A stretch of 64,000 nt of DNA, from positions 85,877 through 149,876 of the IMG/VR virus record IMGVR_UViG_3300027365_000009; one strand, 5' to 3'. Numbering within the stretch: the first letter of the stretch is position 1; every line of letters starts with the position of its first letter. The translations under genes and the position numbers were made by a program. The notes beneath the pieces are model-generated. The model was not told the DNA's origin. It did no database searches and saw only the letters and a program-made list of their open reading frames with translations. Origin of the DNA: a virus. Below are positions 1,462 to 14,860 of this stretch, piece after piece.

Positions 1462-4400
1462 ATGGCGGATAAAAGAAAAGACCTCGAAGAAGAGAACCTG
1501 GATTTACGGATTCTTGACCTCGATGCGTTAGACGATGAATTTGATTTTGATCCCCCGAAAGACGATAAACCCGTTAAACGGTTTGCGGTCAATTTTAAGC
1601 GGGGGTTTTTACAGCAGACCAAATCAAAAGTCCTGCTGCGCAATTTCTTACGCAGTTCTCTACCGGATGGTTATTCCCGACTCTGGGCTGCGGGTGAGAG
1701 TGCGTTCTCTAGCGGTAAGTCCACGGCAGACGACGTCTTCCGGGAAACCGCGCCTGAGCTGGACAGCATTGCCCAAAAGATGGAAGAGGTCTTGCCGAAT
1801 ATTGAAGGCAGGACACCAAAGCGTCTTTATGGGCGTATTGAAAAGGGAGTAGGACGTTTCCGTCGGGCGACTCAGGATCAACAAGACTCAGGATTCTCGC
1901 GTCGCACCCAGGCGGATGACGATAACAGCGAACTTGCCGACGCACTGGATGCGCTTAATGAAACATCGCGTGCTGAAGGTGAACAGGCGTCATTAGAAGC
2001 TGAAGAAAGACGCGTCCGCGATAAGCTGGACGCGGGGCGCTTTGACGTTCTGACGCGCCAGATGGACCGCATCGGGACGGGCGTTGAGCATCAGGTTTCA
2101 TACCAAGACCAGATTCAGTACAAGTTCCAACGCAAGTCCTTAGAACTTCAATACCGTTCTTATTTCGCACTGCGCGACCTGCGTAAGTTTGCAGAAGTCG
2201 CCCAAGACACGCATGAGACGGCTTACAACGCCCTGGTTCACAACAGTGCGTTACCTGATCACCTCAAAATGACGAAAAGTCAGCGGGTGAGGTTTGGAAC
2301 TCAGGACAGCCTCGTCGGTGCCTTGGGTACCCAGATGGCGGCCTCATTGCCTGGGTTCTTGGCTTCCTACTACCCCACCATTATGGAGAATATCCGTAAG
2401 AGTGCGGTGCAGGGCATTCAAGCTGCGGGCGGTATGCTCTCTACCACTGACATGATGAGTGGGATGGGCGGCGACAGCGCCAGCACCGCCGGTCAGGTCG
2501 CCGGAGATGTCGCTGGGGGCTTTTTCCGCAATACCCTGGTGTCACGGGCTGCCATGATGGCCAAGCCTGGTATGGAGCGTTTAGGGGACAAGCTGGGTGG
2601 TGGGCATCACGTAGTGTCCTATTTCCTGAATAACCTCCCCGCATTACTGCAGGAGTACACTCAGGATCACTCCCACTCCACCGGGTTCCGTGGCGTTATC
2701 CAACGGATGGTGCGTGCTATTGTCCCGTCCTATTACCAGGACGATACTTTAGAGGACGGTTCCTTTCAGACCATTGATCGACAAGCGGCCTTTAACCAGC
2801 TGACACAACGTTCCATCGTTGAGGTCATCCCCGGATACCTGTCGCGCCTCCTGCAAGAAACCCGGATGATTCGCACCGGAAGTGACGACGTCGAACGTGA
2901 AGTGTGGGATGTCACCACTGGTCAGTTCACTGGTTATAAAGCGGCGAGAAAAGCCCTTCAGGGTCGTGTCATTAATGAGGCCCAGCGCCGCAACATTGAT
3001 GCCACCCTTAATCAAACCGTCGAGAACTTTGATCCGGATGGCTACCTGTCCGACACGGCACGTGCTGTCCTGAAAGAACGGATGATGCGGGAAGCCTCCC
3101 GTAATGACCGTTTTGATCCCAACACCTATGCGTCGGGTGAAGGTTATGGGGAGGAGGTCGATGACGCCACCCTGAAGGAACTGACGTCGTTCTTTAAGGC
3201 CCAGTTCGATTTTGACGACCAAGGCAGTATGGTAGAGGACGCCGAAAACCGTCGGCGCCGTAATGCCTTTTCGGACGCCTTCCTGGAAGTACGTAATACC
3301 ATCCCCGACCCACGCGCAGAGATTCAGCGGATTTCAGGGGTGGGGATGCAAGAGATCCTCCACGACCTGGGACTGATGACCAGTGATTACGGTCGTAACC
3401 GGGTGAACTACGATCGTGTGTGGGATCTGTATCGTGGCGATGGTCCTTCAACGCCCAACCGTAGCGGTCCGCGTCCTGAGGGACCGATCCCCCGTACCCA
3501 AATCAAGACCGGGTATGACGAGAACGTTACCTTTAAAGAGTCTGTCCAACGGGCTAAAGAGGCGGCCAAGGAGAATCTGCGGTTCAAACGCCTGAAAATT
3601 GAACTGCCTAAGTTCGATGACGCGCTTATCAAGCGTCTACCTGAATTGGATGGGAAAACCCTCGCCAAAGTGGTGGAGTGGCGGCCTGAGCTGCTCGATG
3701 CATTAAAACGTATCGATGGGGATATTGAACTCCGCCTTGCTCCCCATATTGAGAAATTACGCCAACGGGGCAAACCGAAGAAACTGGATCGTGAGACCGC
3801 TGAAGCCCTGTGGACACTCGTATCAGAAAAATCCCGGCATGAGTGGGATGATGTAAAAGCTAAGGCCAAAAAGCACTACGATCAAGCGGAAGAGGCCACA
3901 CGGGATTGGCGGATTAATACCGCAAGCGATGTCCACGAAACCGTAGAGAAAGCCAAGAAAACCTGGGAAGGTGTTGACAAAGACCCTGAGTCTTGGAAAG
4001 AGAAGGCGGCCAAGAAAACTCAAGAAGAGAAACAGCGACTTAAGGAGACTTGGGAAAAGACCCGTACTGCAACTGAGGAGCAAACCGAGCAGCTCAAAGA
4101 GCAAGTTCGGGAACACACCGATCCGATGGTTGAGCAAACGCGTGAGAATGCGAATCGCTGGCGCGAAGAAGCCAGTCGTCGTTCGGAAAATATCCGTGAA
4201 CAGTTCGCCCAACGGGTACGGGATCCACTCCATACACCCAGCGATGAAACGACCCCCGGTTATGGTCAAACCGAATACGATCAATACGTCGATGGTATTC
4301 AGCGTATAGCAGAGCGGCAAGCGGAGACGTCCGATAACATCTTTACCCTGCTACGTGAAGAAATGCAGCGTGGCTTCAAGGTAAGGGAGCTTCCGGAACT

Positions 4401-7400
4401 AACGTTTGCCGATCAGGATGGTAACGCCACCAAAGCGAAAGGTAAGGCCAAACCTGAGAAGAAATGGTCATCCATCCTGAAACGGGGAGCTGATGGTATT
4501 GCGGGGTACTATAAGAACCTATTCCCGGGCATCGGTAAGGGGATGGGTGGTCTCGTTTCAGGTATGGGACGTGGTACGGGTGCTGTGTTCAGTGGAATGG
4601 GACGTGCTGTCGGCCGCATGATTGGCGGTAAAGAGGACGAGGTATTGCCTGATATCTACGTCAAGGCCCGTCCTGACACGCCTGTTCTGCTAGCACGTGA
4701 CATTAAAACCGGGCGTTATATTGACGCCAACACCAACACCGTTATCAAAAGTATTGATGACATCACCGGTGGGGTGTGGGATACCGTTGAAGAACGCATC
4801 GCCATCACCCATACTGAGTTTGAAGAGGGCCTTTTCACACGAGGAGGCGAGAAAATTAAAACTACTCGGGGCCCTGGGATTTTGGGTACCTTGGGGAGTT
4901 TTTATAACAACGCTTACCTCAAGCCCACCCTCTTTGCGGCAAAACAGCTCCCCAATTTAGGGAATGTGGCCAAAGACATGATCTTCTCCGAACGGGATGC
5001 GTATATTCCCGGGGAGAAAGAACCTCGGATTCGGGCGAACCTACTGAAAAAGGGGATTTATTTCGACCAAGCCACAGGTGATCCCATCACCCGCTATAAG
5101 GACATTTCGGGCACCGTGGTGGATGCCAACAACAACGTCGTTGTCAATGCTGCCGAAATCCCTCACCTGGTTGGTTATGACGGACGTCCTCTTGAGACAG
5201 CCGGTACTAAGCTAGGTGGGGTAGCCAAAGCCATCGGTGGGGCGTATGTGGGGGCCCTTAAAGCAGGATGGCACGCTACGAAATCGGTAGCGAAAGGTGC
5301 TTTTGATCTAGGCAAAGCGGTTTCGGATCGTGTGATTGGCATGATTCGTGGCAAGCGAGGGAAGCGTGATGAAGAATCCATGTCCCGTGAAGGTCAGATA
5401 ATCTCCATTCTGGGGGGTATTTACGACCTGCTCGATCAGCGTCTTCCTCAGAACCAAAACTTCCGTAAAGGGTCATGGCAGGAAGAACTTGCCAAACGAG
5501 CTGAAGAACGGGAAGAGGAGAAAGACTTCAAGGAAGAACAAGAGTGGCGAGAAGAAGGTATCTTCGGAAGAATTGGTCGTCGTCTAGGTGGTCTACTGGG
5601 AATGTACCAGGACCGTCAGGATACCCTCGATGAGATCGCCGAAAACACCGAAGACATGGACGATGGTGGGACTGACATACTCGCGACAGGTGGCGGAGAC
5701 GGTCCTGATGGCCGACGGCGTCCTGGTCGCACCCGACGTACCCCTAAGAAGCCTGCACCAAAAGGGTTTTGGCGTAAAGCCGCTCATTACGGCGGTAAAG
5801 GTTTCCGTAGTGTGGGTCGCGGTGCAGCGTCACTTGGACGCGGTGCCCTGAACCTGATGGGTATGGGAGGTCTCGCCAATCCGATCGGTCGTGCCGCCGG
5901 TGGTCTCGGTAAGGGTATGGCCTGGGCCGGTAAGGGTCTGTTCGGTGTTGGGGGCATGCTTGTCCGCGGTGGAGCAATGGCCGCCACGGGCTTGGTCAGT
6001 ATGTTGGGCGCCCCCGTGGTGCTCGCCGGTACTGCTGTCGCCGGTGCTGCGGCTGGCGGTTTTTGGTTGTGGAACCGCCACAAGAAGACGGCCGGTAAGT
6101 TCCGGCAGTTGCGTCTCGCTCAGTATGGTTTCCCCGAAGATGGTGGGTTACAGCGCCGGGTGGTTGCCCTGGAAAACCGCCTGGATGAGGTCACCCAACG
6201 CAATGAAGGTTCTGAGCCCACGCTGAACTTACCGGAAATCGACCCATTAGAGTTAATTGAAATAATGGGCATTTCAGAGGACGATGAACCCGCCCTTCTC
6301 GCCTTGGGGGATTGGTTTGCCAACCGGATGCTTCCCGTTTATCGCAAGTACCAGCAAGTGATGATGACCCACTTCCCCGATACCCCCTTGGGGGAATTGG
6401 ATGACGTGGTGGATCATGATACCGCAGGTGATATTCTGCGCATGGTCTCATTTAGCGACGGTGGGAGTAGTCCTTACCAAGTGCGTGCTAATCCCTTCGA
6501 TCCCGAGACCCCACTGCCGGATGTCACATCCATTATTGAAGAACGTAAGGAGGCAATTCGTAAGGAGTATGATACCCCGGAAGCGGTACGTGACGCTTCC
6601 CGTGCAACCACCGCAGGGGCGGGAAGTACCGCGGCAATCATGACGTCAGTTAATCATGCCGTCGTACAAGCCCGTGAACGTGAGCGACGCAATAGACAGG
6701 CTGAACAGCAAGGAGGGCGTCAGGTATTTGGTAACGTGGGAGCTACTGCTGCGTTAGCGGTTGCGGGCGCTACTAACGTTACTGAACTGGCGAGTCGCCG
6801 CGCGGCGATCCCCGAGTACCGTCGCATGACCGGTAGTAACCTCACGGCCCTTCAAGCCATGCGGGTGCGGGGGTATGGCCTAGTTGACCTTAACCGGTCA
6901 AAGGTCATTGCGCTACTGACCCTTGAGGATACGGTAGTCCCTTACTTAACGTTCAGTGGGGATGGGACAGTTGCCTTTGAGGGGAGTATCAATGATGTTT
7001 TCCGTGAGGTTGCGCCCCTCTTTGGTCTATCGTTGTACGGGTCATCCACAGGGGACGAAACACGAACCGACAAGGAAAAGTTCCGTTTGTGGTTTAGGAG
7101 TCGCTTTTTGAGTGTCTTCCTCACCTACGTCAGTGCAATCCGGCAGATTGACGAAAACGTCGGTATCCCGAACGCGGAGCGTCGATTGGATGACATTGGT
7201 AAACTGGACGTCGGAAAGAGCCTGTACTCCGCCACCTGGGAATCGCGGGAGTCGGGTACCATGTCGGTTTGGGAAGTTCCATGGTTGATCTTTGATCAGC
7301 CCGCGGCCTTCTCTGCCAAGGAATTGGCGAAGATGGAGTTGATGGTATTGGAACAGGCAGTGAGTGGCGAAACCGTAGGGACAGCCGCACAAAGTGCAGA

Positions 7401-8922
7401 GCAGGCACGTCAACAGGCCCAAGGGAATGTAGCGCTGTCGGCATCGGCAATCAATTCTGCACTCCAAGTCGCTAACAGTGGAACGTCATCTCTCGCCTCA
7501 CGTCATCTCCAAGCCTCACGAACTGCAGTGCAACGGGCACAGAACCGTTGGGGAACCGCAGGAGTCGAACCCCCTCGGCGGCCCGGTGGTACCGCTGGCG
7601 CGTTAGGAAATACGTTCTCCGGTATTGTCCAAGGAAATGGAGGGCAGTGGGAGGAGGTCCCCATGCCGCGCGCTAATAAATCCAAGGAAGCCGCGTTACC
7701 GACACTTCAGGCGGTAGAAGCCATGACGGGTGTTGATGCCAACCTTCTCATGACGTTCGCCTCGATTGAGTCGGCGTTTGATTACACGGTAAAGGCACCG
7801 ACTTCATCCGCCACTGGGTGGTTCCAGTTCATTGACGCCACCTGGGATGGCATGATCGAACAACATGCCGACAAATATGGGATTCCTCATACCGGCATGA
7901 CCAAGAATGCCATTCGGGAAATGCGTAAGGACCCCCGTATAAACGCCTTGATGGGGGCGGAGTTCTTGAAAGGGAACTACAAGTACCTGGAACGAAAATT
8001 GGGACGCAAACCCACCGATACCGACCTCTACCTGGCGCACTTCTTTGGTGCAGGCACCGCATACAAGTTCTTGAAGGCGGACCAGAACGCTGTTGCGGCA
8101 AATCTGTTCCGTTCTCAAGCGAACTCTAACCGGAATATTTTCTACCGGGGCGGTCAGCCACGCACCATTGCTGAAGTGTATCAGGTCATGGACGAGAAAG
8201 TGTCGGGACATCGGTTTGGTGGAACCAGCGCCTCTCGTACAGTGGATATGGATGAACCTGATCCGGTGTCGGTTCCGGAAGGGGCGTCCATGGAAGCGGC
8301 GAATGATCCCGAAGCAGGGGATGCGGGGATTATTGAAGAGGGCGGTCGTGAGATGATCCAGCTGGCGCCAGAAGGGGTTAACAATCACCTTCAGGGTGTG
8401 GATAACCCCATGCTGACAGAAGGGCAACGAAATGCCCATCGGCGGCGGCAATCGACCAGTAGTCGCGTTGGGTCAACCATCAATCCAGCAAACGCCGCAG
8501 TGGCGGGCGCTGGCTTGGGTGGACCACTAGGTCAAAACGCCACACCACCGACTGGGGGTAGATTCTACGGGGCGATCGACTCCGATCCTCAGGATGACCC
8601 CGTGGTGCGTCAGCGGGAACGCCAACGCCAACAGGCGGAGGTGGCAGATCTCCAACAGCGCGAGCTTGCCGATCGAGATCGGGAAACCAACCGGAATGTG
8701 GGTCGTGTTCTCAGTCGCCAACTGGAAGTCCAGCAAACGATGGCGGATTACCTTAAAGCTATCGCGGAGAATATTACAGGTGGGGCGCGGGAATCCACGA
8801 CGACGGAACGTCAGGACGACCGTCAGAATCGCAATGATTCCAGTCGGCCCCCTGAACCGCGTGGGGGTGAACGACGTCAGCATCACGTACCGCCCATCAA
8901 CATGAGACGGAATTCTCCGTAA
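1462..8922 (+). CDS. Large tail protein with C-terminal lytic transglycosylase domain (phiKZ gp181-like)
   Basis: 2486 aa with RBS GGAGG. It has coiled-coil and Gly-rich segments. SLT motifs IES(AFD), SSATGWFQF and YLAHFFGAG occur at about 7750-8060. Confidence 0.9.
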   Translation: MADKRKDLEEENLDLRILDLDALDDEFDFDPPKDDKPVKRFAVNFKRGFLQQTKSKVLLRNFLRSSLPDGYSRLWAAGESAFSSGKSTADDVFRETAPELDSIAQKMEEVLPNIEGRTPKRLYGRIEKGVGRFRRATQDQQDSGFSRRTQADDDNSELADALDALNETSRAEGEQASLEAEERRVRDKLDAGRFDVLTRQMDRIGTGVEHQVSYQDQIQYKFQRKSLELQYRSYFALRDLRKFAEVAQDTHETAYNALVHNSALPDHLKMTKSQRVRFGTQDSLVGALGTQMAASLPGFLASYYPTIMENIRKSAVQGIQAAGGMLSTTDMMSGMGGDSASTAGQVAGDVAGGFFRNTLVSRAAMMAKPGMERLGDKLGGGHHVVSYFLNNLPALLQEYTQDHSHSTGFRGVIQRMVRAIVPSYYQDDTLEDGSFQTIDRQAAFNQLTQRSIVEVIPGYLSRLLQETRMIRTGSDDVEREVWDVTTGQFTGYKAARKALQGRVINEAQRRNIDATLNQTVENFDPDGYLSDTARAVLKERMMREASRNDRFDPNTYASGEGYGEEVDDATLKELTSFFKAQFDFDDQGSMVEDAENRRRRNAFSDAFLEVRNTIPDPRAEIQRISGVGMQEILHDLGLMTSDYGRNRVNYDRVWDLYRGDGPSTPNRSGPRPEGPIPRTQIKTGYDENVTFKESVQRAKEAAKENLRFKRLKIELPKFDDALIKRLPELDGKTLAKVVEWRPELLDALKRIDGDIELRLAPHIEKLRQRGKPKKLDRETAEALWTLVSEKSRHEWDDVKAKAKKHYDQAEEATRDWRINTASDVHETVEKAKKTWEGVDKDPESWKEKAAKKTQEEKQRLKETWEKTRTATEEQTEQLKEQVREHTDPMVEQTRENANRWREEASRRSENIREQFAQRVRDPLHTPSDETTPGYGQTEYDQYVDGIQRIAERQAETSDNIFTLLREEMQRGFKVRELPELTFADQDGNATKAKGKAKPEKKWSSILKRGADGIAGYYKNLFPGIGKGMGGLVSGMGRGTGAVFSGMGRAVGRMIGGKEDEVLPDIYVKARPDTPVLLARDIKTGRYIDANTNTVIKSIDDITGGVWDTVEERIAITHTEFEEGLFTRGGEKIKTTRGPGILGTLGSFYNNAYLKPTLFAAKQLPNLGNVAKDMIFSERDAYIPGEKEPRIRANLLKKGIYFDQATGDPITRYKDISGTVVDANNNVVVNAAEIPHLVGYDGRPLETAGTKLGGVAKAIGGAYVGALKAGWHATKSVAKGAFDLGKAVSDRVIGMIRGKRGKRDEESMSREGQIISILGGIYDLLDQRLPQNQNFRKGSWQEELAKRAEEREEEKDFKEEQEWREEGIFGRIGRRLGGLLGMYQDRQDTLDEIAENTEDMDDGGTDILATGGGDGPDGRRRPGRTRRTPKKPAPKGFWRKAAHYGGKGFRSVGRGAASLGRGALNLMGMGGLANPIGRAAGGLGKGMAWAGKGLFGVGGMLVRGGAMAATGLVSMLGAPVVLAGTAVAGAAAGGFWLWNRHKKTAGKFRQLRLAQYGFPEDGGLQRRVVALENRLDEVTQRNEGSEPTLNLPEIDPLELIEIMGISEDDEPALLALGDWFANRMLPVYRKYQQVMMTHFPDTPLGELDDVVDHDTAGDILRMVSFSDGGSSPYQVRANPFDPETPLPDVTSIIEERKEAIRKEYDTPEAVRDASRATTAGAGSTAAIMTSVNHAVVQARERERRNRQAEQQGGRQVFGNVGATAALAVAGATNVTELASRRAAIPEYRRMTGSNLTALQAMRVRGYGLVDLNRSKVIALLTLEDTVVPYLTFSGDGTVAFEGSINDVFREVAPLFGLSLYGSSTGDETRTDKEKFRLWFRSRFLSVFLTYVSAIRQIDENVGIPNAERRLDDIGKLDVGKSLYSATWESRESGTMSVWEVPWLIFDQPAAFSAKELAKMELMVLEQAVSGETVGTAAQSAEQARQQAQGNVALSASAINSALQVANSGTSSLASRHLQASRTAVQRAQNRWGTAGVEPPRRPGGTAGALGNTFSGIVQGNGGQWEEVPMPRANKSKEAALPTLQAVEAMTGVDANLLMTFASIESAFDYTVKAPTSSATGWFQFIDATWDGMIEQHADKYGIPHTGMTKNAIREMRKDPRINALMGAEFLKGNYKYLERKLGRKPTDTDLYLAHFFGAGTAYKFLKADQNAVAANLFRSQANSNRNIFYRGGQPRTIAEVYQVMDEKVSGHRFGGTSASRTVDMDEPDPVSVPEGASMEAANDPEAGDAGIIEEGGREMIQLAPEGVNNHLQGVDNPMLTEGQRNAHRRRQSTSSRVGSTINPANAAVAGAGLGGPLGQNATPPTGGRFYGAIDSDPQDDPVVRQRERQRQQAEVADLQQRELADRDRETNRNVGRVLSRQLEVQQTMADYLKAIAENITGGARESTTTERQDDRQNRNDSSRPPEPRGGERRQHHVPPINMRRNSP

Positions 8923-8934
8923 CGGTATGACCTA

Positions 8935-8964
8935 GGGCCTCCTAGTGAGGCCCTTTTCTTTTTT
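8935..8964 (+). terminator. Intrinsic terminator
   Basis: GGGCCTC-ctagt-GAGGCCC followed by TTTTCTTTTTT. Confidence 0.75.
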
Positions 8965-8976
8965 CCGGAGGTAATT

Positions 8977-10995
8977 ATGGGATCACCCACGAACGACAGG
9001 CGTTGGATTCGTCACGCCTTCTTGTTACCCATCAACTCCACTAGTGCTGAGGTGGGTACTAATTCGCGTCGGCGGCTGGCCACTTCCGCCGCCTATAAAT
9101 TTCAAAACGCTTCCCTAGGAGGTCATTACGCTGTTAATGTCCCACCCCAATTCACACGCTTTGCGGACATCCGCGTGCCCGGTAAGGGACGTTCCGAAGA
9201 CGAGTGGGATAAAGGCATGGGGCGTTATTACAGTGAAGCGATTGATGACCCCAAGCAGATTGTTCACCTTTCGTTTGGTGTCCCTCGGTATTCGTCGTGG
9301 ACAAGTTTCTTCACCAACTTCTATGACCGACATAGTGCGTTATTGGCCAATACCGGTCGCTCCAGTGGGCCGTTCTATAACCTCGGCCTGGCGGGTGGGT
9401 ATATCGTCAGTCTCCCGCTGCAGCCTTTCATTATGGCGTTTAGTGGGGCTTCTAGGGTATGGAACTTCTTGTCCAAAGCCCAACCGAGTAAATGGTACTA
9501 CTTTAAACCCACCATGCATTCGTATTGGTCGTCGGTGAATACCATCGCCAACGAACTGGCCATCAACATGGGATTGATTCCCCGTGTGTTCTCCGATGGT
9601 CAATCATCCCTGCAGGAAGGCGGTGAAATTAGCGATCAAGAAATCAGACGGATGCACGAAATGTTCCCGACCATTTGGCGGGAGGACGGTGGTATTGATG
9701 TCATGTCGCTGGCGCGGGAAGCACAGCGTCGCTCCGATCATGCGGACCTTGCCGCTAAACGCATGAAAGAAAGTGCCACCAACATTCGAGAACTGGGTGA
9801 TGCCTTGGTGCAATTTCAACGCCAAAAAGCAGAAGAGCCCCAACGGAATTTCTCAGATGCAAAAGACTACTTTCTGGCAGCTGTAAAACAAGAAGATTAT
9901 CGGACGGACGATGGTATTGTCACTGAAGGTTTCCAATCAACCGGAACAGGTAACGAAGAAGAACCGACCTTCTCCACTTGGAAAGGGCTGAATGGGATGT
10001 ATGAATTTGTGCGGGCTTCTCAACGTGATGGTTCGCAGTTCGCGTCTTTCTATGTTCAGTATAATGGTTCAGTATCGGAATCATTCAATAACTCAACACG
10101 TGAGTCCAATATCTCCCAGACACTCAATCAAAAGGTCGCTTCTGGACGCTCGGCAAGTTTCGACCTGATGGCCGGTAATATATCCGGTGGGATCGGGGAA
10201 ATTATTAACTCGTTTCAATCTTTCGCTGCTGGATTGTTGGACAGTGTAAATCTGGGTGGTCTAGCAACGCTTGCTGGTACCGCCTATCTTGACATACCTA
10301 AGATGTGGGATGGTTCCACAGCGAACTTACCGCGGGCTGAATACACCGTTCCCCTACCCAGTCCGTATGGGAATCCCATTTCCCGCTACACCAACATGAT
10401 GATTCCGTTGAGCATGCTGCTAGCGGGGGCCTTGCCTTTATCGGCAGGTAAATCCGCCTACACCAGCCCGTTCTTGTGTCAGATCTACCATCAGGGACGA
10501 GTACAAATCCAGTTAGGGATGATTGACTCGATCACCATCACCCGCGGTACCGGCAACGTGGGGTGGAGTGCTGAACACAACATGCTGGGGGCAGAGGTCA
10601 GCTTCTCGGTGGTGGACATGTCATCCATTATGCATGTGCCCATCAAAGGGGGGTTCGCCAGTGCAGATTGGATTGGGACCGCCACGCGGGCGGCTGTCAT
10701 GCAGGGTGCTCAGTCTGGGGGTGGGGATACCGCCGCGGCGATTGCCGGTATGGCCACCAACGGGTCGGTATGGGATGAACAAAACACCTTTACGGATTAC
10801 ATGTCAGTGCTCAGTTCCTTGTCGCTTGATAATATCTATTACGTCGGTAAACGTCTGAACCTTAACATGACGCGTACATTACGTAGCTTCAAAACGTGGA
10901 AATCACCGTCTAATGTTATGTCGTGGATGTTAGATGGTCAACCTGCCCGGACCCTATCGGGTCTTTCCCAGTACAGTAACCGTTTCAACGAATAA
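8977..10995 (+). CDS. Virion structural protein (phiKZ gp182-like)
   Basis: 672 aa with RBS GGAGG, directly downstream of the gp181-like gene. PPQFTRFAD and GMGRYYSEAIDD segments are recalled from this family. Confidence 0.75.
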   Translation: MGSPTNDRRWIRHAFLLPINSTSAEVGTNSRRRLATSAAYKFQNASLGGHYAVNVPPQFTRFADIRVPGKGRSEDEWDKGMGRYYSEAIDDPKQIVHLSFGVPRYSSWTSFFTNFYDRHSALLANTGRSSGPFYNLGLAGGYIVSLPLQPFIMAFSGASRVWNFLSKAQPSKWYYFKPTMHSYWSSVNTIANELAINMGLIPRVFSDGQSSLQEGGEISDQEIRRMHEMFPTIWREDGGIDVMSLAREAQRRSDHADLAAKRMKESATNIRELGDALVQFQRQKAEEPQRNFSDAKDYFLAAVKQEDYRTDDGIVTEGFQSTGTGNEEEPTFSTWKGLNGMYEFVRASQRDGSQFASFYVQYNGSVSESFNNSTRESNISQTLNQKVASGRSASFDLMAGNISGGIGEIINSFQSFAAGLLDSVNLGGLATLAGTAYLDIPKMWDGSTANLPRAEYTVPLPSPYGNPISRYTNMMIPLSMLLAGALPLSAGKSAYTSPFLCQIYHQGRVQIQLGMIDSITITRGTGNVGWSAEHNMLGAEVSFSVVDMSSIMHVPIKGGFASADWIGTATRAAVMQGAQSGGGDTAAAIAGMATNGSVWDEQNTFTDYMSVLSSLSLDNIYYVGKRLNLNMTRTLRSFKTWKSPSNVMSWMLDGQPARTLSGLSQYSNRFNE

Positions 10996-11689: not shown

Positions 11690-12091
11690 ATGTCAACTCG
11701 CACGTTACGTTCCCATATCGTCAATCCCGCTAACGATAAGATCACGATCAACGTCACCGACGAGCCCGGAGATGGTGGTGCCAACCATCGTTATGAGATT
11801 AGCGGTTTCAATATCGAATCCAACGCCTCAAAAGAAGACCATGACGGGAACCGAAATCAGGTGAACCTCCTGTTCCAAAATGGTCCGATTCCTGAAAAGG
11901 GTGTCAATGGTATCACCCATGAGGTGTTGCTCGCTATCTTGATTGACCGCCTCCAAGGGTTCCAGGACGGTCCCTTCCGCTGCCGTGAAAATGCCCTGGC
12001 CCTCACCAAACTGGAAGAGGCTCAGATGTGGTTGCAGAAGCGCACACGTGATCGGATGTCAAGAGGGGTCGAGGGGACCCATGAGCAGTAA
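11690..12091 (+). CDS. tad1: Tad1-like anti-defence sponge protein
   Basis: RBS AGGAGG. Motifs GDGGANHRY, FQNGP and DRLQGFQDGPFRCRENALALTKLEEAQMWLQKRTRDRMSRGVEGT match the recalled Tad1 consensus ([48 protein letters not shown].GT). Confidence 0.88.
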   Translation: MSTRTLRSHIVNPANDKITINVTDEPGDGGANHRYEISGFNIESNASKEDHDGNRNQVNLLFQNGPIPEKGVNGITHEVLLAILIDRLQGFQDGPFRCRENALALTKLEEAQMWLQKRTRDRMSRGVEGTHEQ

Positions 12092-12386
12092 CCCCGTTAG
12101 TGACCATGATATCAACGGGATGCCCATACGGCATCTCTATGTGCGGTATCTGATGGCCAGCTACTTGTACTATGTGTGTGATGAAGCCTCACCTTGGTCG
12201 GATTACGAATACGACCTCGCCTGCCGGCGTTTACACACTGAGTGGGAAAGCTTCGATCATCCCCATAAGTACCTATTACGTAATCCCGATAGTCTCTTAG
12301 CGGGGACAGGGTTTGATATCATCAACTACCCCAGCATTGTCCGGGTCTGTTCCTGGTCATGGAAAGAGGGTGAGTTCAACAGATAG
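12081..12386 (+). CDS. Stand-alone NAD-dependent ligase domain Ia-like (Nlig-Ia) protein
   Basis: ATG 12081 (RBS GAGGGG) overlaps the tad1 3' end. SYLYYVCDEASPWSDYEYDLACRRL matches the LigA Ia motif (Y-x-YY...P..SD-x-EYD-x-L). There is no adenylation domain. Confidence 0.75.
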   Translation: MSSNPVSDHDINGMPIRHLYVRYLMASYLYYVCDEASPWSDYEYDLACRRLHTEWESFDHPHKYLLRNPDSLLAGTGFDIINYPSIVRVCSWSWKEGEFNR

Positions 12387-12397
12387 GAGTAGCAACA

Positions 12398-12631
12398 ATG
12401 CGTTTTCAAACCGCGTATGTGTGGATGAAGCATGGTAAGCGGATGCGTGTGCCAGGCTTCAAGGGGTATTGGCGTTTCAATAAAGAAACCGAAACTATTG
12501 AGATTGTCACGAAAGACAATGTTGTCATGGATATCCGTGACACTAAAGACGTTGATTTCACGATGTCGTTCATTAACTCCGACGAATGGGAGTTCTACGA
12601 AGGACATAATGACCCGCGTCAGAACACATAA
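12398..12631 (+). CDS. tad2: Tad2-like (DUF2829-type) anti-defence sponge protein
   Basis: RBS AGGAG. It has the M-x-F-x-x-A-x-x-x-MK-x-G-K N-terminus and a SDEW C-terminal motif typical of the Tad2 fold. Confidence 0.7.
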   Translation: MRFQTAYVWMKHGKRMRVPGFKGYWRFNKETETIEIVTKDNVVMDIRDTKDVDFTMSFINSDEWEFYEGHNDPRQNT

Positions 12632-12636
12632 CTCCA

Positions 12637-12656
12637 AGGGCTCCTGCGGGAGCCCT
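12637..12656 (+). terminator. Hairpin closing the tad1-Nlig-tad2 unit
   Basis: AGGGCTCC-tgcg-GGAGCCCT flanked by ACATA and TATGCC. Confidence 0.65.
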
Positions 12657-12675
12657 ACTATGCCGTCCCACTGTA

Positions 12676-12700
12676 TTTAACATCTATATCACTCTATTGC
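12676..12700 (+). promoter_or_regulatory. Putative phage early promoter TTT-N5-CTATATCAC-N5-TG
   Basis: One of five intergenic copies. It resembles the phiKZ early consensus TATATTAC. Confidence 0.7.
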
Positions 12701-12727
12701 CCACTCACCCAAGGAACTAACACGCTA

Positions 12728-13231
12728 ATGAATACCAATGCTTCGTTAATCACACTAAGTAACCGCATCCCCGACACTGACGTCACTGCGTTTATCGCAG
12801 CCCTTGAAAACAAAGAGGGCCCATACTTCCCCAAAACCGTCGTATTCGATGATCCAGTATCACATTACCAAGTATATTGTGGGAATGTCGAAAAGGGGAG
12901 TCGTCACTGGTATTTGGATTTCACCAGCATTGCCCTCAAAGAAGGGAAAATCGACGCGCGTGAGGTTTTGCGCGTATACAATGACCTGGCGCTGAAAGGC
13001 GGGGATCTCCTCTACGCAGGCGATACCAGTCACTTTATCTTGGACATAGCGCGACGCATTACTAACGGTCCGCGGTTCTACCGTCAGGACGGCATTACCG
13101 TTTATGGCATTGTCCGTGAGTTCTGCCATCGGATGGAAGACCTCAACCATCACCTAGTGGAGATAGGTCCCGTCAATAACCCCAACCACCCTTACGTTAT
13201 CAAGGTCGTCAGCAAGACCAATCGGGATTAG
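12728..13231 (+). CDS. Hypothetical protein
   Basis: 167 aa ORF with RBS AAGGA, downstream of the promoter motif. Confidence 0.75.
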   Translation: MNTNASLITLSNRIPDTDVTAFIAALENKEGPYFPKTVVFDDPVSHYQVYCGNVEKGSRHWYLDFTSIALKEGKIDAREVLRVYNDLALKGGDLLYAGDTSHFILDIARRITNGPRFYRQDGITVYGIVREFCHRMEDLNHHLVEIGPVNNPNHPYVIKVVSKTNRD

Positions 13232-13244
13232 TCATCCCAACGAG

Positions 13245-13269
13245 TTTAACACCTATATCACTACCATGC
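13245..13269 (+). promoter_or_regulatory. Putative phage early promoter
   Basis: TTTAACACCTATATCACTACCATG. Confidence 0.7.
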
Positions 13270-13293
13270 ATCCACTGGAAAAGGAACCCCGTC

Positions 13294-13401
13294 GTGAAAC
13301 AATTTCTCAAAGCCGTCGCCATCGGTACCATCACTGGCGTCGCCATCACGCTGACCATGGAAGAAATCCATAAGTGGCGCCAGCGTAACGCACGTCACTG
13401 A
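13294..13401 (+). CDS. Small membrane protein (35 aa)
   Basis: Not in the track. GTG start with RBS AAGGA. Sequence MKQFLKAVAIGTITGVAITLTMEEIHKWRQRNARH. Confidence 0.55.
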   Translation: MKQFLKAVAIGTITGVAITLTMEEIHKWRQRNARH

Positions 13402-13454
13402 CCCCCATCAAGCCTTAGAATAAACCGAAACACAATCACAGGACACGCAACACC

Positions 13455-13592
13455 ATGGACATCAATACCCTGATCGATCTTGTCGAAGCTCACGATGACC
13501 TCTCCGCTTCCCTGTACGAAGAGCAGTTTCGGCACGTCGATCCCGAGCAAGTTTCCCTCTCCACCAACGACAAACTCGTTGATGTGGAATAA
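13455..13592 (+). CDS. Small acidic protein (45 aa)
   Basis: Not in the track. RBS AGGA. Sequence MDINTLIDLVEAHDDL...LVDVE. Confidence 0.5.
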   Translation: MDINTLIDLVEAHDDLSASLYEEQFRHVDPEQVSLSTNDKLVDVE

Positions 13593-13673
13593 CCATGGCG
13601 GGGAAACTACCCGCCAGCACCATCCGATGAGGGGTAATGCCCTCACCACTGACCCAGAGAAGAGAGAACTGTA

Positions 13674-14087
13674 ATGAGCGAACTCAAGTCCCGCAAGTAC
13701 GCCGACAAACATGGCCTGGCTGACAAGCTGAAGGTGGACGCCAAAACTGGCGAGATCACCCCCAGTGATGATTACTACGAGGCCACACTCGAGGGAACGG
13801 GTGTGACCCTGGACCAACTCAAGAAGGTCCAGAATAACAATGCCGAGCTACTTTCATCCACCACCCTGGTGGCTGGGGAAATGGCTGCCGAACATTTCAA
13901 GGAACACCCCGAGACGAACGAGCTGTCGCTGCGCTATTCCGCTGGACGCGATACCTATGCGATGAACTTCTCCCGCGCGGAAGACGCCAAGCCAGTCCGG
14001 CATGAGATCAGCATCTATGGCGCTGAAGACAAAGGTGAGCTCAAGAAGGTGAAAAAGCTCGTCAAGGGTCTCTTTGACGAGATCTGA
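13674..14087 (+). CDS. Hypothetical protein
   Basis: 137 aa ORF followed by a UUCG hairpin. Confidence 0.8.
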   Translation: MSELKSRKYADKHGLADKLKVDAKTGEITPSDDYYEATLEGTGVTLDQLKKVQNNNAELLSSTTLVAGEMAAEHFKEHPETNELSLRYSAGRDTYAMNFSRAEDAKPVRHEISIYGAEDKGELKKVKKLVKGLFDEI

Positions 14088-14113
14088 TCACAGCGTGTCA
14101 AAACCTGTTGCTA

Positions 14114-14146
14114 ACCGTTCCACCTTCGGGTGGGGCGGTTTATTTG
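14114..14146 (+). terminator. Intrinsic terminator with UUCG loop
   Basis: ACCGTTCCACC-TTCG-GGTGGGGCGGT followed by a T-rich tail. Confidence 0.75.
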
Positions 14147-14218: not shown

Positions 14219-14860
14219 ATGCAACACCAACCTCTTTTCATTTGTTTTGAGGGTATTGATGGTGCGGGTAAAACGACCCAACTGGATCGACTTTACACCT
14301 ACTTGGTGGACTGTGGTATCGATGTTATCAAGACACGCGAGCCTGGCGGGACCCCATTGGCAGAACATATTCGAGAAGGTATGCTATCAACTGACTTAAC
14401 CGAGTCCGTCAGTCCGATGACGGAACTTCTCATGGTTTATGCGGCTCGTCAACAACACCTCGATAATGTGATTCGTCCCGCCCTTACCAATGGCACATGG
14501 GTGTTATGCGACCGTTTTATCGATACCACCTACGCGTACCAAATCCGCGGACGCTGTCTATCCCCAGCCCTATTCCATCAGCTAAACGACATCGTAGTGC
14601 GGGACACGAAACCCGATCTGACGCTATTCTTCACTCTCCCCGACGAGGTCTACCAGGCACGTCTCGCTGGACGGACCGAGAAGTCCGATCGTCTTGATCG
14701 TGAATCCCACTTATTTGCCGAGAGGGTCATTGGCGGCCTAAAAGAACGAGCCCGGTTCTGTGGGCATCCGACGGTTATGGCCGATGGGGCGATTGAAGAA
14801 GTTACCGAACGCATGCTTGACACACTGCGTCGTTATATTAACCTCCCGGAGGCCGCATGA
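14219..14860 (+). CDS. tmk: Thymidylate kinase
   Basis: Motifs FEGIDGAGKTTQ, TREPGGT, CDRF and YQ. The likely start is ATG 14219. Confidence 0.95.
   Translation: MQHQPLFICFEGIDGAGKTTQLDRLYTYLVDCGIDVIKTREPGGTPLAEHIREGMLSTDLTESVSPMTELLMVYAARQQHLDNVIRPALTNGTWVLCDRFIDTTYAYQIRGRCLSPALFHQLNDIVVRDTKPDLTLFFTLPDEVYQARLAGRTEKSDRLDRESHLFAERVIGGLKERARFCGHPTVMADGAIEEVTERMLDTLRRYINLPEAA

Follow-up and report, generated by a model that had tools for sequence, protein, structure and literature searches.

What does the NAD+-binding N-terminal domain of a DNA ligase do when a phage encodes it alone, between a homologue of the Thoeris anti-defence protein Tad1 and a second putative sponge? The question is raised by a 101-residue protein encoded in the window, by which we mean the whole 64,000-nucleotide stretch analysed here (positions 85,877 to 149,876 of IMG/VR record IMGVR_UViG_3300027365_000009). 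The original prediction described this protein as a stand-alone ligase domain Ia without a KxDG motif, retaining the Tyr and Asp residues that contact the NMN half of NAD+, and proposed from its position between two sponges that it is a new sponge for NAD-derived signals. Our analysis bears out the domain, the residues and the position; it speaks against the newness and lends no support to an ADPR-type ligand. We tentatively favour a nicotinamide nucleotide, NAD+ or NMN, as the ligand. The features concerned all lie on the plus strand of the window:

11690 to 12091, plus strand: Tad1 homologue of 133 aa, first gene of the putative operon, starting at ATG 11690 (PDB, Pfam and PHROG matches)
12071 to 12076, plus strand: GAGGGG, a Shine-Dalgarno-like motif for the Nlig-Ia gene, read from the sequence within the 3' end of the Tad1 gene
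12081 to 12386, plus strand: Nlig-Ia gene (PF22745), from ATG 12081 to a TAG ending at 12386, encoding a stand-alone protein of 101 aa
12092 to 12385, plus strand: 294-nt cassette that related phages lack at the syntenic position (DNA alignment)
12398 to 12631, plus strand: gene for a 77-aa protein with a predicted Tad2 fold, third gene of the putative operon (AlphaFold2 model and Foldseek)
12728 to 13231, plus strand: gene for a 167-aa protein in the same co-directional block, with no family match
13674 to 14087, plus strand: gene for a 137-aa protein (phrog_16459, E 3.6e-21), the last ahead of the first terminator-like hairpin
14113 to 14140, plus strand: terminator-like hairpin, the first on this strand past the putative operon, with a 12-bp stem, 7 G-C pairs and a T-rich tail
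14219 to 14860, plus strand: dTMP kinase gene (TIGR00041, E 9.5e-42), which opens a nucleotide-metabolism block

The open reading frame at 12081 to 12386 is intact, with 101 codons and SYLYYVCDEASPWSDYEYDL present in its translation. The protein contains the segment RYLMASYLYYVCDEASPWSDYEYDLACRRL, and inspection of its whole sequence finds no KxDG motif. Residues 22-81 match the Pfam family PF22745 ('Nlig-Ia, DNA ligase-like N-terminal NAD+-binding domain') at 34.5 bits, against a gathering cut-off of 27 (E 3.3e-8). A six-frame search of the genome with PF22745 returned the same single match, and among PHROG families the protein matches phrog_19233 (E 1.2e-17). Its membership of the phage solo Nlig-Ia family, far above chance, is confirmed. 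An exhaustive phmmer search of 1.84 billion representatives of 50% identity clusters yielded a family of 587 clusters at E<=1e-3. The best 150 of these 587 are all 72-302 aa long, with a median of 108 aa, and therefore constitute a stand-alone family rather than fragments of ligases. The window's protein is acidic (pI 5.4, net charge -5). Basic C-terminal tails (+6 to +14), of a kind like those that bind nucleic acid, occur in 12 of the best 150 of 587 representatives, and the window's own protein has no strongly basic C-terminal tail. A sliding-clamp-binding motif shows no enrichment in these 150 representatives, with 1 occurrence where shuffled sequences give an expectation of 0.87. Megablast with the 3 kb surrounding the gene gave no match in 50,697 phage records.

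The family is known and has its own Pfam entry. Iyer, Burroughs, Anantharaman and Aravind (Viruses 2022; PMC9503650) described solo Nlig-Ia in 81 phages, which with one exception carry no ligase, and suggested a role for the domain as a sensor of NAD+ or as its shield against NADase effectors. The claim that the family and the idea of NAD+ sensing or shielding were new is thus not supported. Our literature search, which included recent sponge screens and reviews, found no experimental paper on solo Nlig-Ia.

A domain that is only part of a ligase raises the possibility of a split enzyme, with Nlig-Ia acting in trans as a subunit and the catalytic part of the phage NAD+-dependent ligase encoded at another site. 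Our comparison sample comprised 28 viral loci with Nlig-Ia relatives, together with cultured phages (Pseudomonas Samunavirus, Vibrio Mardecavirus, the Vibrio jumbo phage pVa-21, and Rhizobium, Rhodobacter and Xanthomonas phages). Neither the adenylation domain of NAD+-dependent ligases (PF01653) nor that of ATP-dependent ligases (PF01068) was found in any of the 28 Nlig-Ia-bearing records (0/28 for each), the window's record included. Twelve of these are IMG/VR records that are at least 90% complete, and four are GenBank records titled 'complete genome'. Nor do homologues sit beside split ligase genes, an arrangement that would have spoken against an anti-defence role. This count rules out a split ligase for the family, and Iyer et al. 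report the same for their 81 phages, with the one exception (PMC9503650). Some homologues in GenBank are labelled 'putative NAD-dependent DNA ligase', which would favour a split enzyme; the label is wrong. The window's own genome record (150 kb) is 51% complete, so a ligase, or a separate catalytic module, may still lie in the missing half. We consider a split ligase very improbable indeed, and we regard the ligase-less pattern of Nlig-Ia phages as suggestive only. The 150-kb record contains none of the NAD salvage genes that we looked for (NAPRTase, NMNAT-type and Nudix).

What the family has kept is a pocket. The five contact residues, Y30, Y31, D41, Y44 and D45, are all present in the window's protein. 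We counted conservation over the best 150 of the 587 representatives, each from a separate 50%-identity cluster. In that set Y30 is kept in 149/150, Y31 in 146/150, D41 in 150/150 and D45 in 145/150, while position 44 is Y in 97/150 and F in 53/150. The pocket is under strong purifying selection. We take Y30, Y31, D41, Y/F44 and D45 to be the equivalents of Y22, H23, D32, Y35 and D36 of E. coli LigA, residues that are reportedly needed for the reaction of that enzyme with NAD+. The requirement for a set of domain Ia residues in the NAD+ reaction of LigA is credited to Sriskanda and Shuman (2002) in an excerpt of PMC4797296, and a review describes the nicotinamide as stacked on a tyrosine pair in the pocket between domains Ia and NT (PMC7470946).

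Other conserved positions are the family's own. H60 (148/150), H62 (138/150) and K63 (134/150), an A-G-T-G loop and a Y-P pair are near-invariant in the best 150 of 587 representatives. The H-P-H-K motif, the AGTG loop and the Y-P lie in a C-terminal element that is not found in LigA. This element, through H60, H62, K63 and AGTG, may complete the pocket and take the place of the missing NTase half. The pocket as predicted is acidic and aromatic, and by analogy would suit a cationic nicotinamide riboside moiety rather than an anionic cyclic nucleotide.

We also compared the family and the single protein with solved structures. A profile built from 60 family members and searched against the PDB gave 22 rows, 21 of them N-termini of NAD+-dependent ligases, with the SY-YY...D-EYD-L motif aligned. 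Only residues 13-64 of the window's protein match LigA; phmmer with the single sequence found nothing in the PDB, and LigA was reached by the family profile only. An AlphaFold2 model of the protein has four helices and a mean pLDDT of 93.6. Its top structural match among 48,161 PDB representatives is domain Ia of S. aureus LigA (3jsl_A, residues 5-60), with Z 4.3 and, for the 51 residues aligned, an rmsd of 2.7 A and 26% identity; unrelated helical structures come close behind at Z 4.0. Foldseek with the model found nothing in the PDB at E<=1e-3; all E-values exceeded 1, and LigA chains were among the weak rows. A complex predicted from two copies of the protein and two of NAD scored 0.03 against a mark of 0.42, and carries no weight in either direction on whether the protein oligomerises.

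The genes on either side are, respectively, a clear and a predicted member of the Thoeris anti-defence repertoire. Upstream, the 133-aa protein matches 8kbb, 'Thoeris anti-defense 1', in a phmmer search of the PDB (E 3e-24) and other Tad1 chains at about 1e-18; it also matches PF24729 (Acb2_Tad1_hairpin; 32 bits, cut-off 27) and phrog_2428 (E 1.6e-36). Downstream, the 77-aa protein has no match in Pfam (PF11195 included), in NCBIfam or in a PDB sequence search, and its assignment comes from structure prediction. Its AlphaFold2 model (pLDDT 88) was compared with the PDB by Foldseek, and the top 22 matches are all Tad2 (SPO1, Myroides, Hgm, Spt) or AcrIIA7, with TM 0.65-0.67 and a best E of 9e-3. 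In a language-model search of the Atlas, 19/30 matches fall in clusters that carry PF11195 as a minority annotation, which 23% of the members bear in one such cluster. We conclude that the 77-aa protein probably adopts the Tad2 fold and is of sponge type, which places Nlig-Ia between a Tad1 homologue and a likely second sponge, as originally claimed. The 167-aa protein farther downstream has no Pfam, PHROG, NCBIfam or usable Atlas match.

The layout of these genes suggests a single transcription unit. The Nlig-Ia reading frame overlaps that of Tad1 by 11 nt, its ATG at 12081 lying within the last Tad1 codons (CAT GAG CAG TAA) and 4 nt past GAGGGG. The 77-aa gene starts 11 nt past the Nlig-Ia stop and has its own GGAG ribosome-binding site. 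A consensus scan of the plus strand from 11690 to 14087 found no terminator-like site. Judged from this arrangement, the Tad1, Nlig-Ia and Tad2-like genes probably share one tight operon; the 11-nt overlap, the 11-nt gap and the lack of a terminator-like site before 14113 point to co-expression of Nlig-Ia with the anti-Thoeris genes. Beyond the hairpin and the dTMP kinase gene lie genes for an HNH protein (HNH_3), DHFR (DHFR_1) and ThyA (Thymidylat_synt).

Two related phages, L038 and L039, reveal how Nlig-Ia came to be there. When the window is aligned with both at the DNA level, homology ends with the Tad1 stop codon and is picked up where the 77-aa gene has its GGAG, and 294 columns between are gapped in both. 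Their gene tables agree: a Tad1-like gene is followed directly by the counterpart of the 77-aa gene (80 aa in L038, 77 aa in L039). At the position of the Nlig-Ia start, L038 reads CAC GAG AAA TAA, with no ATG. The order in L038 is otherwise syntenic, with genes for proteins of 2404, 660 and 79 aa, the Tad1-like protein and the 80-aa protein, and then, farther on, dTMP kinase and HNH; a 139-aa gene occupies the position of the window's 137-aa gene, and three different genes (287, 204 and 179 aa) stand where the window has its 167-aa gene. Since the Tad1-like and Tad2-like genes are adjacent in both relatives and the 294 nt are found only in the window, Nlig-Ia was gained as a precise cassette, inserted cleanly into a conserved Tad1/Tad2-like pair. 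The family of the 77-aa protein has few relatives. One of them, of 91 aa, lies between ThyA and DHFR and near an Acb3 gene in a further locus (L040), which marks the locus in the window as a variable anti-defence hotspot.

Is a sponge neighbourhood typical of solo Nlig-Ia? The original prediction asked whether homologues are enriched beside known anti-defence genes, and in our sample they are not. The Tad1/Acb2 hairpin domain (PF24729) occurs in 0/25 other Nlig-Ia-bearing viral records, and a Tad2-like gene (PF11195) occurs in 4/26 records, 6-44 kb from the Nlig-Ia gene. The 145 co-directional genes within 2.5 kb of Nlig-Ia genes match 50 Pfam families in a Pfam scan, and none of the 25 commonest is an anti-defence family. 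The sponge neighbourhood is peculiar to the lineage of the window. To our knowledge, this locus is the first direct genomic link between the solo Nlig-Ia family and anti-Thoeris genes; what is new is the Nlig-Ia cassette between a Tad1 homologue and a gene for a predicted Tad2 fold in a jumbo phage, the family itself being known. In DUF488-N3a (PF22751) we note a recurrent partner of another kind: it is fused to Nlig-Ia in the protein P0143 and encoded by the next gene downstream in two jumbo-phage contigs. A literature search on DUF488-N3a returned nothing usable. Some Vibrio phage records label the Nlig-Ia protein 'terminase small subunit', a name we reject because the family carries the ligase Ia motif and elsewhere sits in replication modules.

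These results bear directly on the proposal that Nlig-Ia, as a sponge, covers an immune signal that escapes Tad1 and Tad2 and is of ADPR type or otherwise derived from NAD, whether a gcADPR isomer, His-ADPR, N7-cADPR or another. The proposal draws on the apparent operon with a Tad1 homologue and a putative Tad2-fold protein, on the cassette-type gain in a variable anti-defence hotspot, on a size as small as that of known sponges, and on the fact that hotspots of this sort keep yielding new sponge folds, RyR-Tad of N4-like phages among them (bioRxiv 10.64898/2026.06.04.730250). However, the rest of the family in our sample has no association with sponges or anti-defence genes, and the protein is acidic, whereas published sponge predictors seek positively charged pockets. 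Its conserved residues, moreover, are those that hold the nicotinamide-ribose in LigA. Thoeris signals are ADPR derivatives, and the known ones, gcADPR and His-ADPR, contain no nicotinamide. As they lack the nicotinamide-ribose half, a sponge for ADPR-type signals does not follow from the homology, and we think such a sponge improbable. A variant would make the locus an array of three sponges, Tad1, Nlig-Ia and the Tad2-like protein, in which a pocket completed by HPHK and AGTG sequesters an NAD-derived signal beyond the reach of the other two, or a so far undescribed messenger that contains nicotinamide. We hold this to be improbable to a similar degree.

The neighbours that do recur across the family are of another sort. 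In a clustering of neighbours, DNA polymerase A recurs most often, at 7 loci, and primase-helicase next, at 6; ThyX and a 5'-3' exonuclease also recur, as does the large terminase in a T7-like group, and the 25 commonest neighbour families include SSB, UvrD, an SNF2 helicase, a dNMP kinase, PhoH and methylases. The gene for the homologue nearest in sequence (62% identity) directly follows that for DNA polymerase A; its phage also has a T7-type helicase-primase and a head-tail connector. The homologue in pVa-21 lies in an island running from ThyA to DHFR, accompanied by genes for an HD-domain protein and for a Nudix protein that is annotated as ADP-ribose pyrophosphatase.

Such company could mean that Nlig-Ia assists replication independently of immunity, as a helper of the host NAD+-dependent ligase, and that its place in the Tad operon is an accident of cassette movement. 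Free domain Ia would capture NMN, the product of ligase adenylylation and its back-reactant, or pass NAD+ to LigA at the fork; either would raise the capacity to seal nicks when phage DNA synthesis surges. The recurrent replication and nucleotide-metabolism neighbours fit this account, as do the lack of a ligase in 28/28 records, the basic tails of 12 of the best 150 of 587 representatives, and the dTMP kinase, DHFR and ThyA genes that follow the window's operon. The association with replication genes is weak, however, because small early genes of all kinds cluster in replication modules. The window's protein has no basic tail, the sliding-clamp motif is not enriched in the 150 representatives, and the precise insertion into a sponge operon would be left unexplained. 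We regard a role confined to replication as rather unlikely, though the likeliest of the rivals.

Alternatively, the partner of Nlig-Ia could be a protein. Free domain Ia might dock on the NTase domain of host LigA and inhibit or re-program it, or it might block a SIR2 or TIR NADase effector. Domain Ia packs on the NTase domain in the closed state of LigA (PMC7470946), some known phage inhibitors plug the active sites of NADases (Nip and aRad1 block NADase effectors), and the link to DUF488-N3a is reproducible. Yet near-invariant residues of the kind that contact a small molecule fit ligand binding better than a protein interface, and inhibition of LigA would hurt a phage without a ligase of its own. 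We give modulation of a protein partner little credence.

We return, then, to nicotinamide-nucleotide binding. Beside the identity of the domain, the conservation of its pocket, its place in the operon, the cassette insertion and the absence of ligases from 28 records, our preferred reading, to which we would assign somewhat less than an even chance, is that Nlig-Ia binds NAD+ or NMN and acts in NAD+-directed conflict. The protein would be a non-catalytic binder. Tad1 and the Tad2-like protein would mop up Thoeris signals, and Nlig-Ia would buffer the damage downstream, namely the loss of NAD+ to NADase effectors. It might keep a modest, protected reserve of NAD+, or capture NMN, such that NAD+-dependent steps continue. 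The main step kept running in this way would be nick sealing by the host ligase, because no ligase gene was found in the phages with Nlig-Ia. Bulk NAD+ concentrations in bacteria lie in the millimolar range, which makes it implausible that the protein shields the entire pool stoichiometrically; a small private reserve, or the less abundant NMN, would be the realistic target.

Solo Nlig-Ia is a large phage family with a clear, testable ligand hypothesis, and the locus described here is well suited to a first bench test. If the protein instead supports host LigA, it would show how phages without a ligase secure nick sealing.

How does this protein compare with systems already described? Its nearest counterparts are the solo Nlig-Ia proteins of other phages (PF22745, with ECBP2_0056 as the exemplar), which share a length of about 100 aa, the Y-Y/D/Y-D pocket and the absence of a ligase. 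Unlike them, the window's gene is a cassette between a Tad1 homologue and a gene for a predicted Tad2 fold, a setting not seen in the 25 other records and not described in the available part of PMC9503650. With domain Ia of LigA (PDB 3jsl, 1ta8/1tae and 5tt5), Nlig-Ia has in common the motif and equivalent contact residues and, as far as its model goes, probably a two-helix core. It differs in lacking the NTase, OB, Zn, HhH and BRCT domains, and would therefore not ligate, and in having extra conserved features: HPHK, the AGTG loop and a C-terminal YP...A...W element.

Like the sponges Tad1, Tad2, Acb2, Acb4 and Sequestin, Nlig-Ia is small, and its gene apparently forms one operon with those for a Tad1 homologue and a putative Tad2-fold protein. 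By analogy with Tad1, Tad2 and Acb2, it may bind a small NAD-related molecule without catalysis. Its fold and sequence are unrelated to theirs, and in our sample its family has no general association with defence genes. NARP1/2/3 and the NADase inhibitors Nip and aRad1 address the problem that we propose for Nlig-Ia, NAD+ depletion, and are likewise found in accessory gene islands. They are enzymes or direct protein inhibitors, whereas Nlig-Ia has no recognisable catalytic domain. If Nlig-Ia does bind NAD+ or NMN and protects the phage from NADase effectors, it would represent a non-enzymatic strategy that stands beside the NARP pathways and the NADase inhibitors.

The solo DNA ligase domain Ia family (Nlig-Ia) has a Rosetta-stone-type link to DUF488-N3a (PF22751), in which a fusion in one protein is matched by adjacency elsewhere. 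In P0143, a metagenomic Nlig-Ia protein of 254 aa, DUF488-N3a is fused on the N-terminal side of Nlig-Ia, and in two jumbo-phage contigs (L035 and L036, each ~210 kb) the two are adjoining genes:

10661-11062 of L035, DUF488-N3a gene immediately downstream of Nlig-Ia
10733-11107 of L036, DUF488-N3a gene immediately downstream of Nlig-Ia

C-terminal tails that are Arg/Pro-rich and strongly basic (net +6 to +14) occur in 12 of the 150 Nlig-Ia representatives, including P0009, P0035, P0066, P0084, P0086, P0100, P0122, P0129, P0138 and P0140; three other representatives have very acidic tails. The basic tails point to a subset of the family that binds nucleic acid or a partner. In GenBank, Nlig-Ia homologues of Vibrio Mardecavirus are labelled 'terminase small subunit' or 'putative NAD-dependent DNA ligase protein' (e.g. 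PQ602151.1, PQ582221.1, OQ680630.1 and OK625546.1). Both labels look wrong, because the protein, as in SSP002, is ~148 aa long and has the Ia domain only.

In the Vibrio jumbo phage pVa-21, Nlig-Ia lies between ThyA and DHFR:

3531-9747 of the pVa-21 locus, ThyA-DHFR interval

Also in this interval are an HD_4 gene (SpoT-like hydrolase), which is listed as a ppGpp synthetase, and a Nudix gene of 299 aa, whose annotation reads ADP-ribose pyrophosphatase. A ThyA-DHFR interval in the viral locus L040 holds Acb3 and, close to it, a gene of the Tad2-fold family described below. The interval may thus be an accessory hotspot common to both viruses.

We found the small Tad2-fold gene of the window to have relatives in four further viral loci:

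12398-12631 (+) of the window, fold match to Tad2
6001-6243 of L038, relative
6001-6234 of L039, relative
2714-2989 of L040, relative
1240-1473 of L041, relative

Members are 77-91 aa long and were unmatched in a search with Pfam PF11195; the model of the window member aligns with SPO1 Tad2 at TM 0.65-0.67. The family is likely a divergent Tad2 subfamily, unannotated so far. In L038 and L039 its gene lies immediately downstream of a Tad1-like gene, and the two likely form a conserved Tad1/Tad2-like pair.

Between the Tad2-like gene and dTMP kinase, gene content differs among the relatives. This part of the locus resembles a variable accessory island and may contain more anti-defence genes. In the window (12728-14087) it holds one 167-aa orphan, without matches in Pfam, PHROG, NCBIfam or Atlas, whereas L038 (6348-9277) has three genes there, 287, 204 and 179 aa long. 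On the 5' side of the Tad2-like gene, two loci carry the following genes:

530-1234 of L041, 234-aa gene, no recorded Pfam match
5406-5987 of L039, 193-aa Tad1-like gene

The L039 protein is longer than canonical Tad1, and its extra length may represent an N-terminal extension or a fusion.
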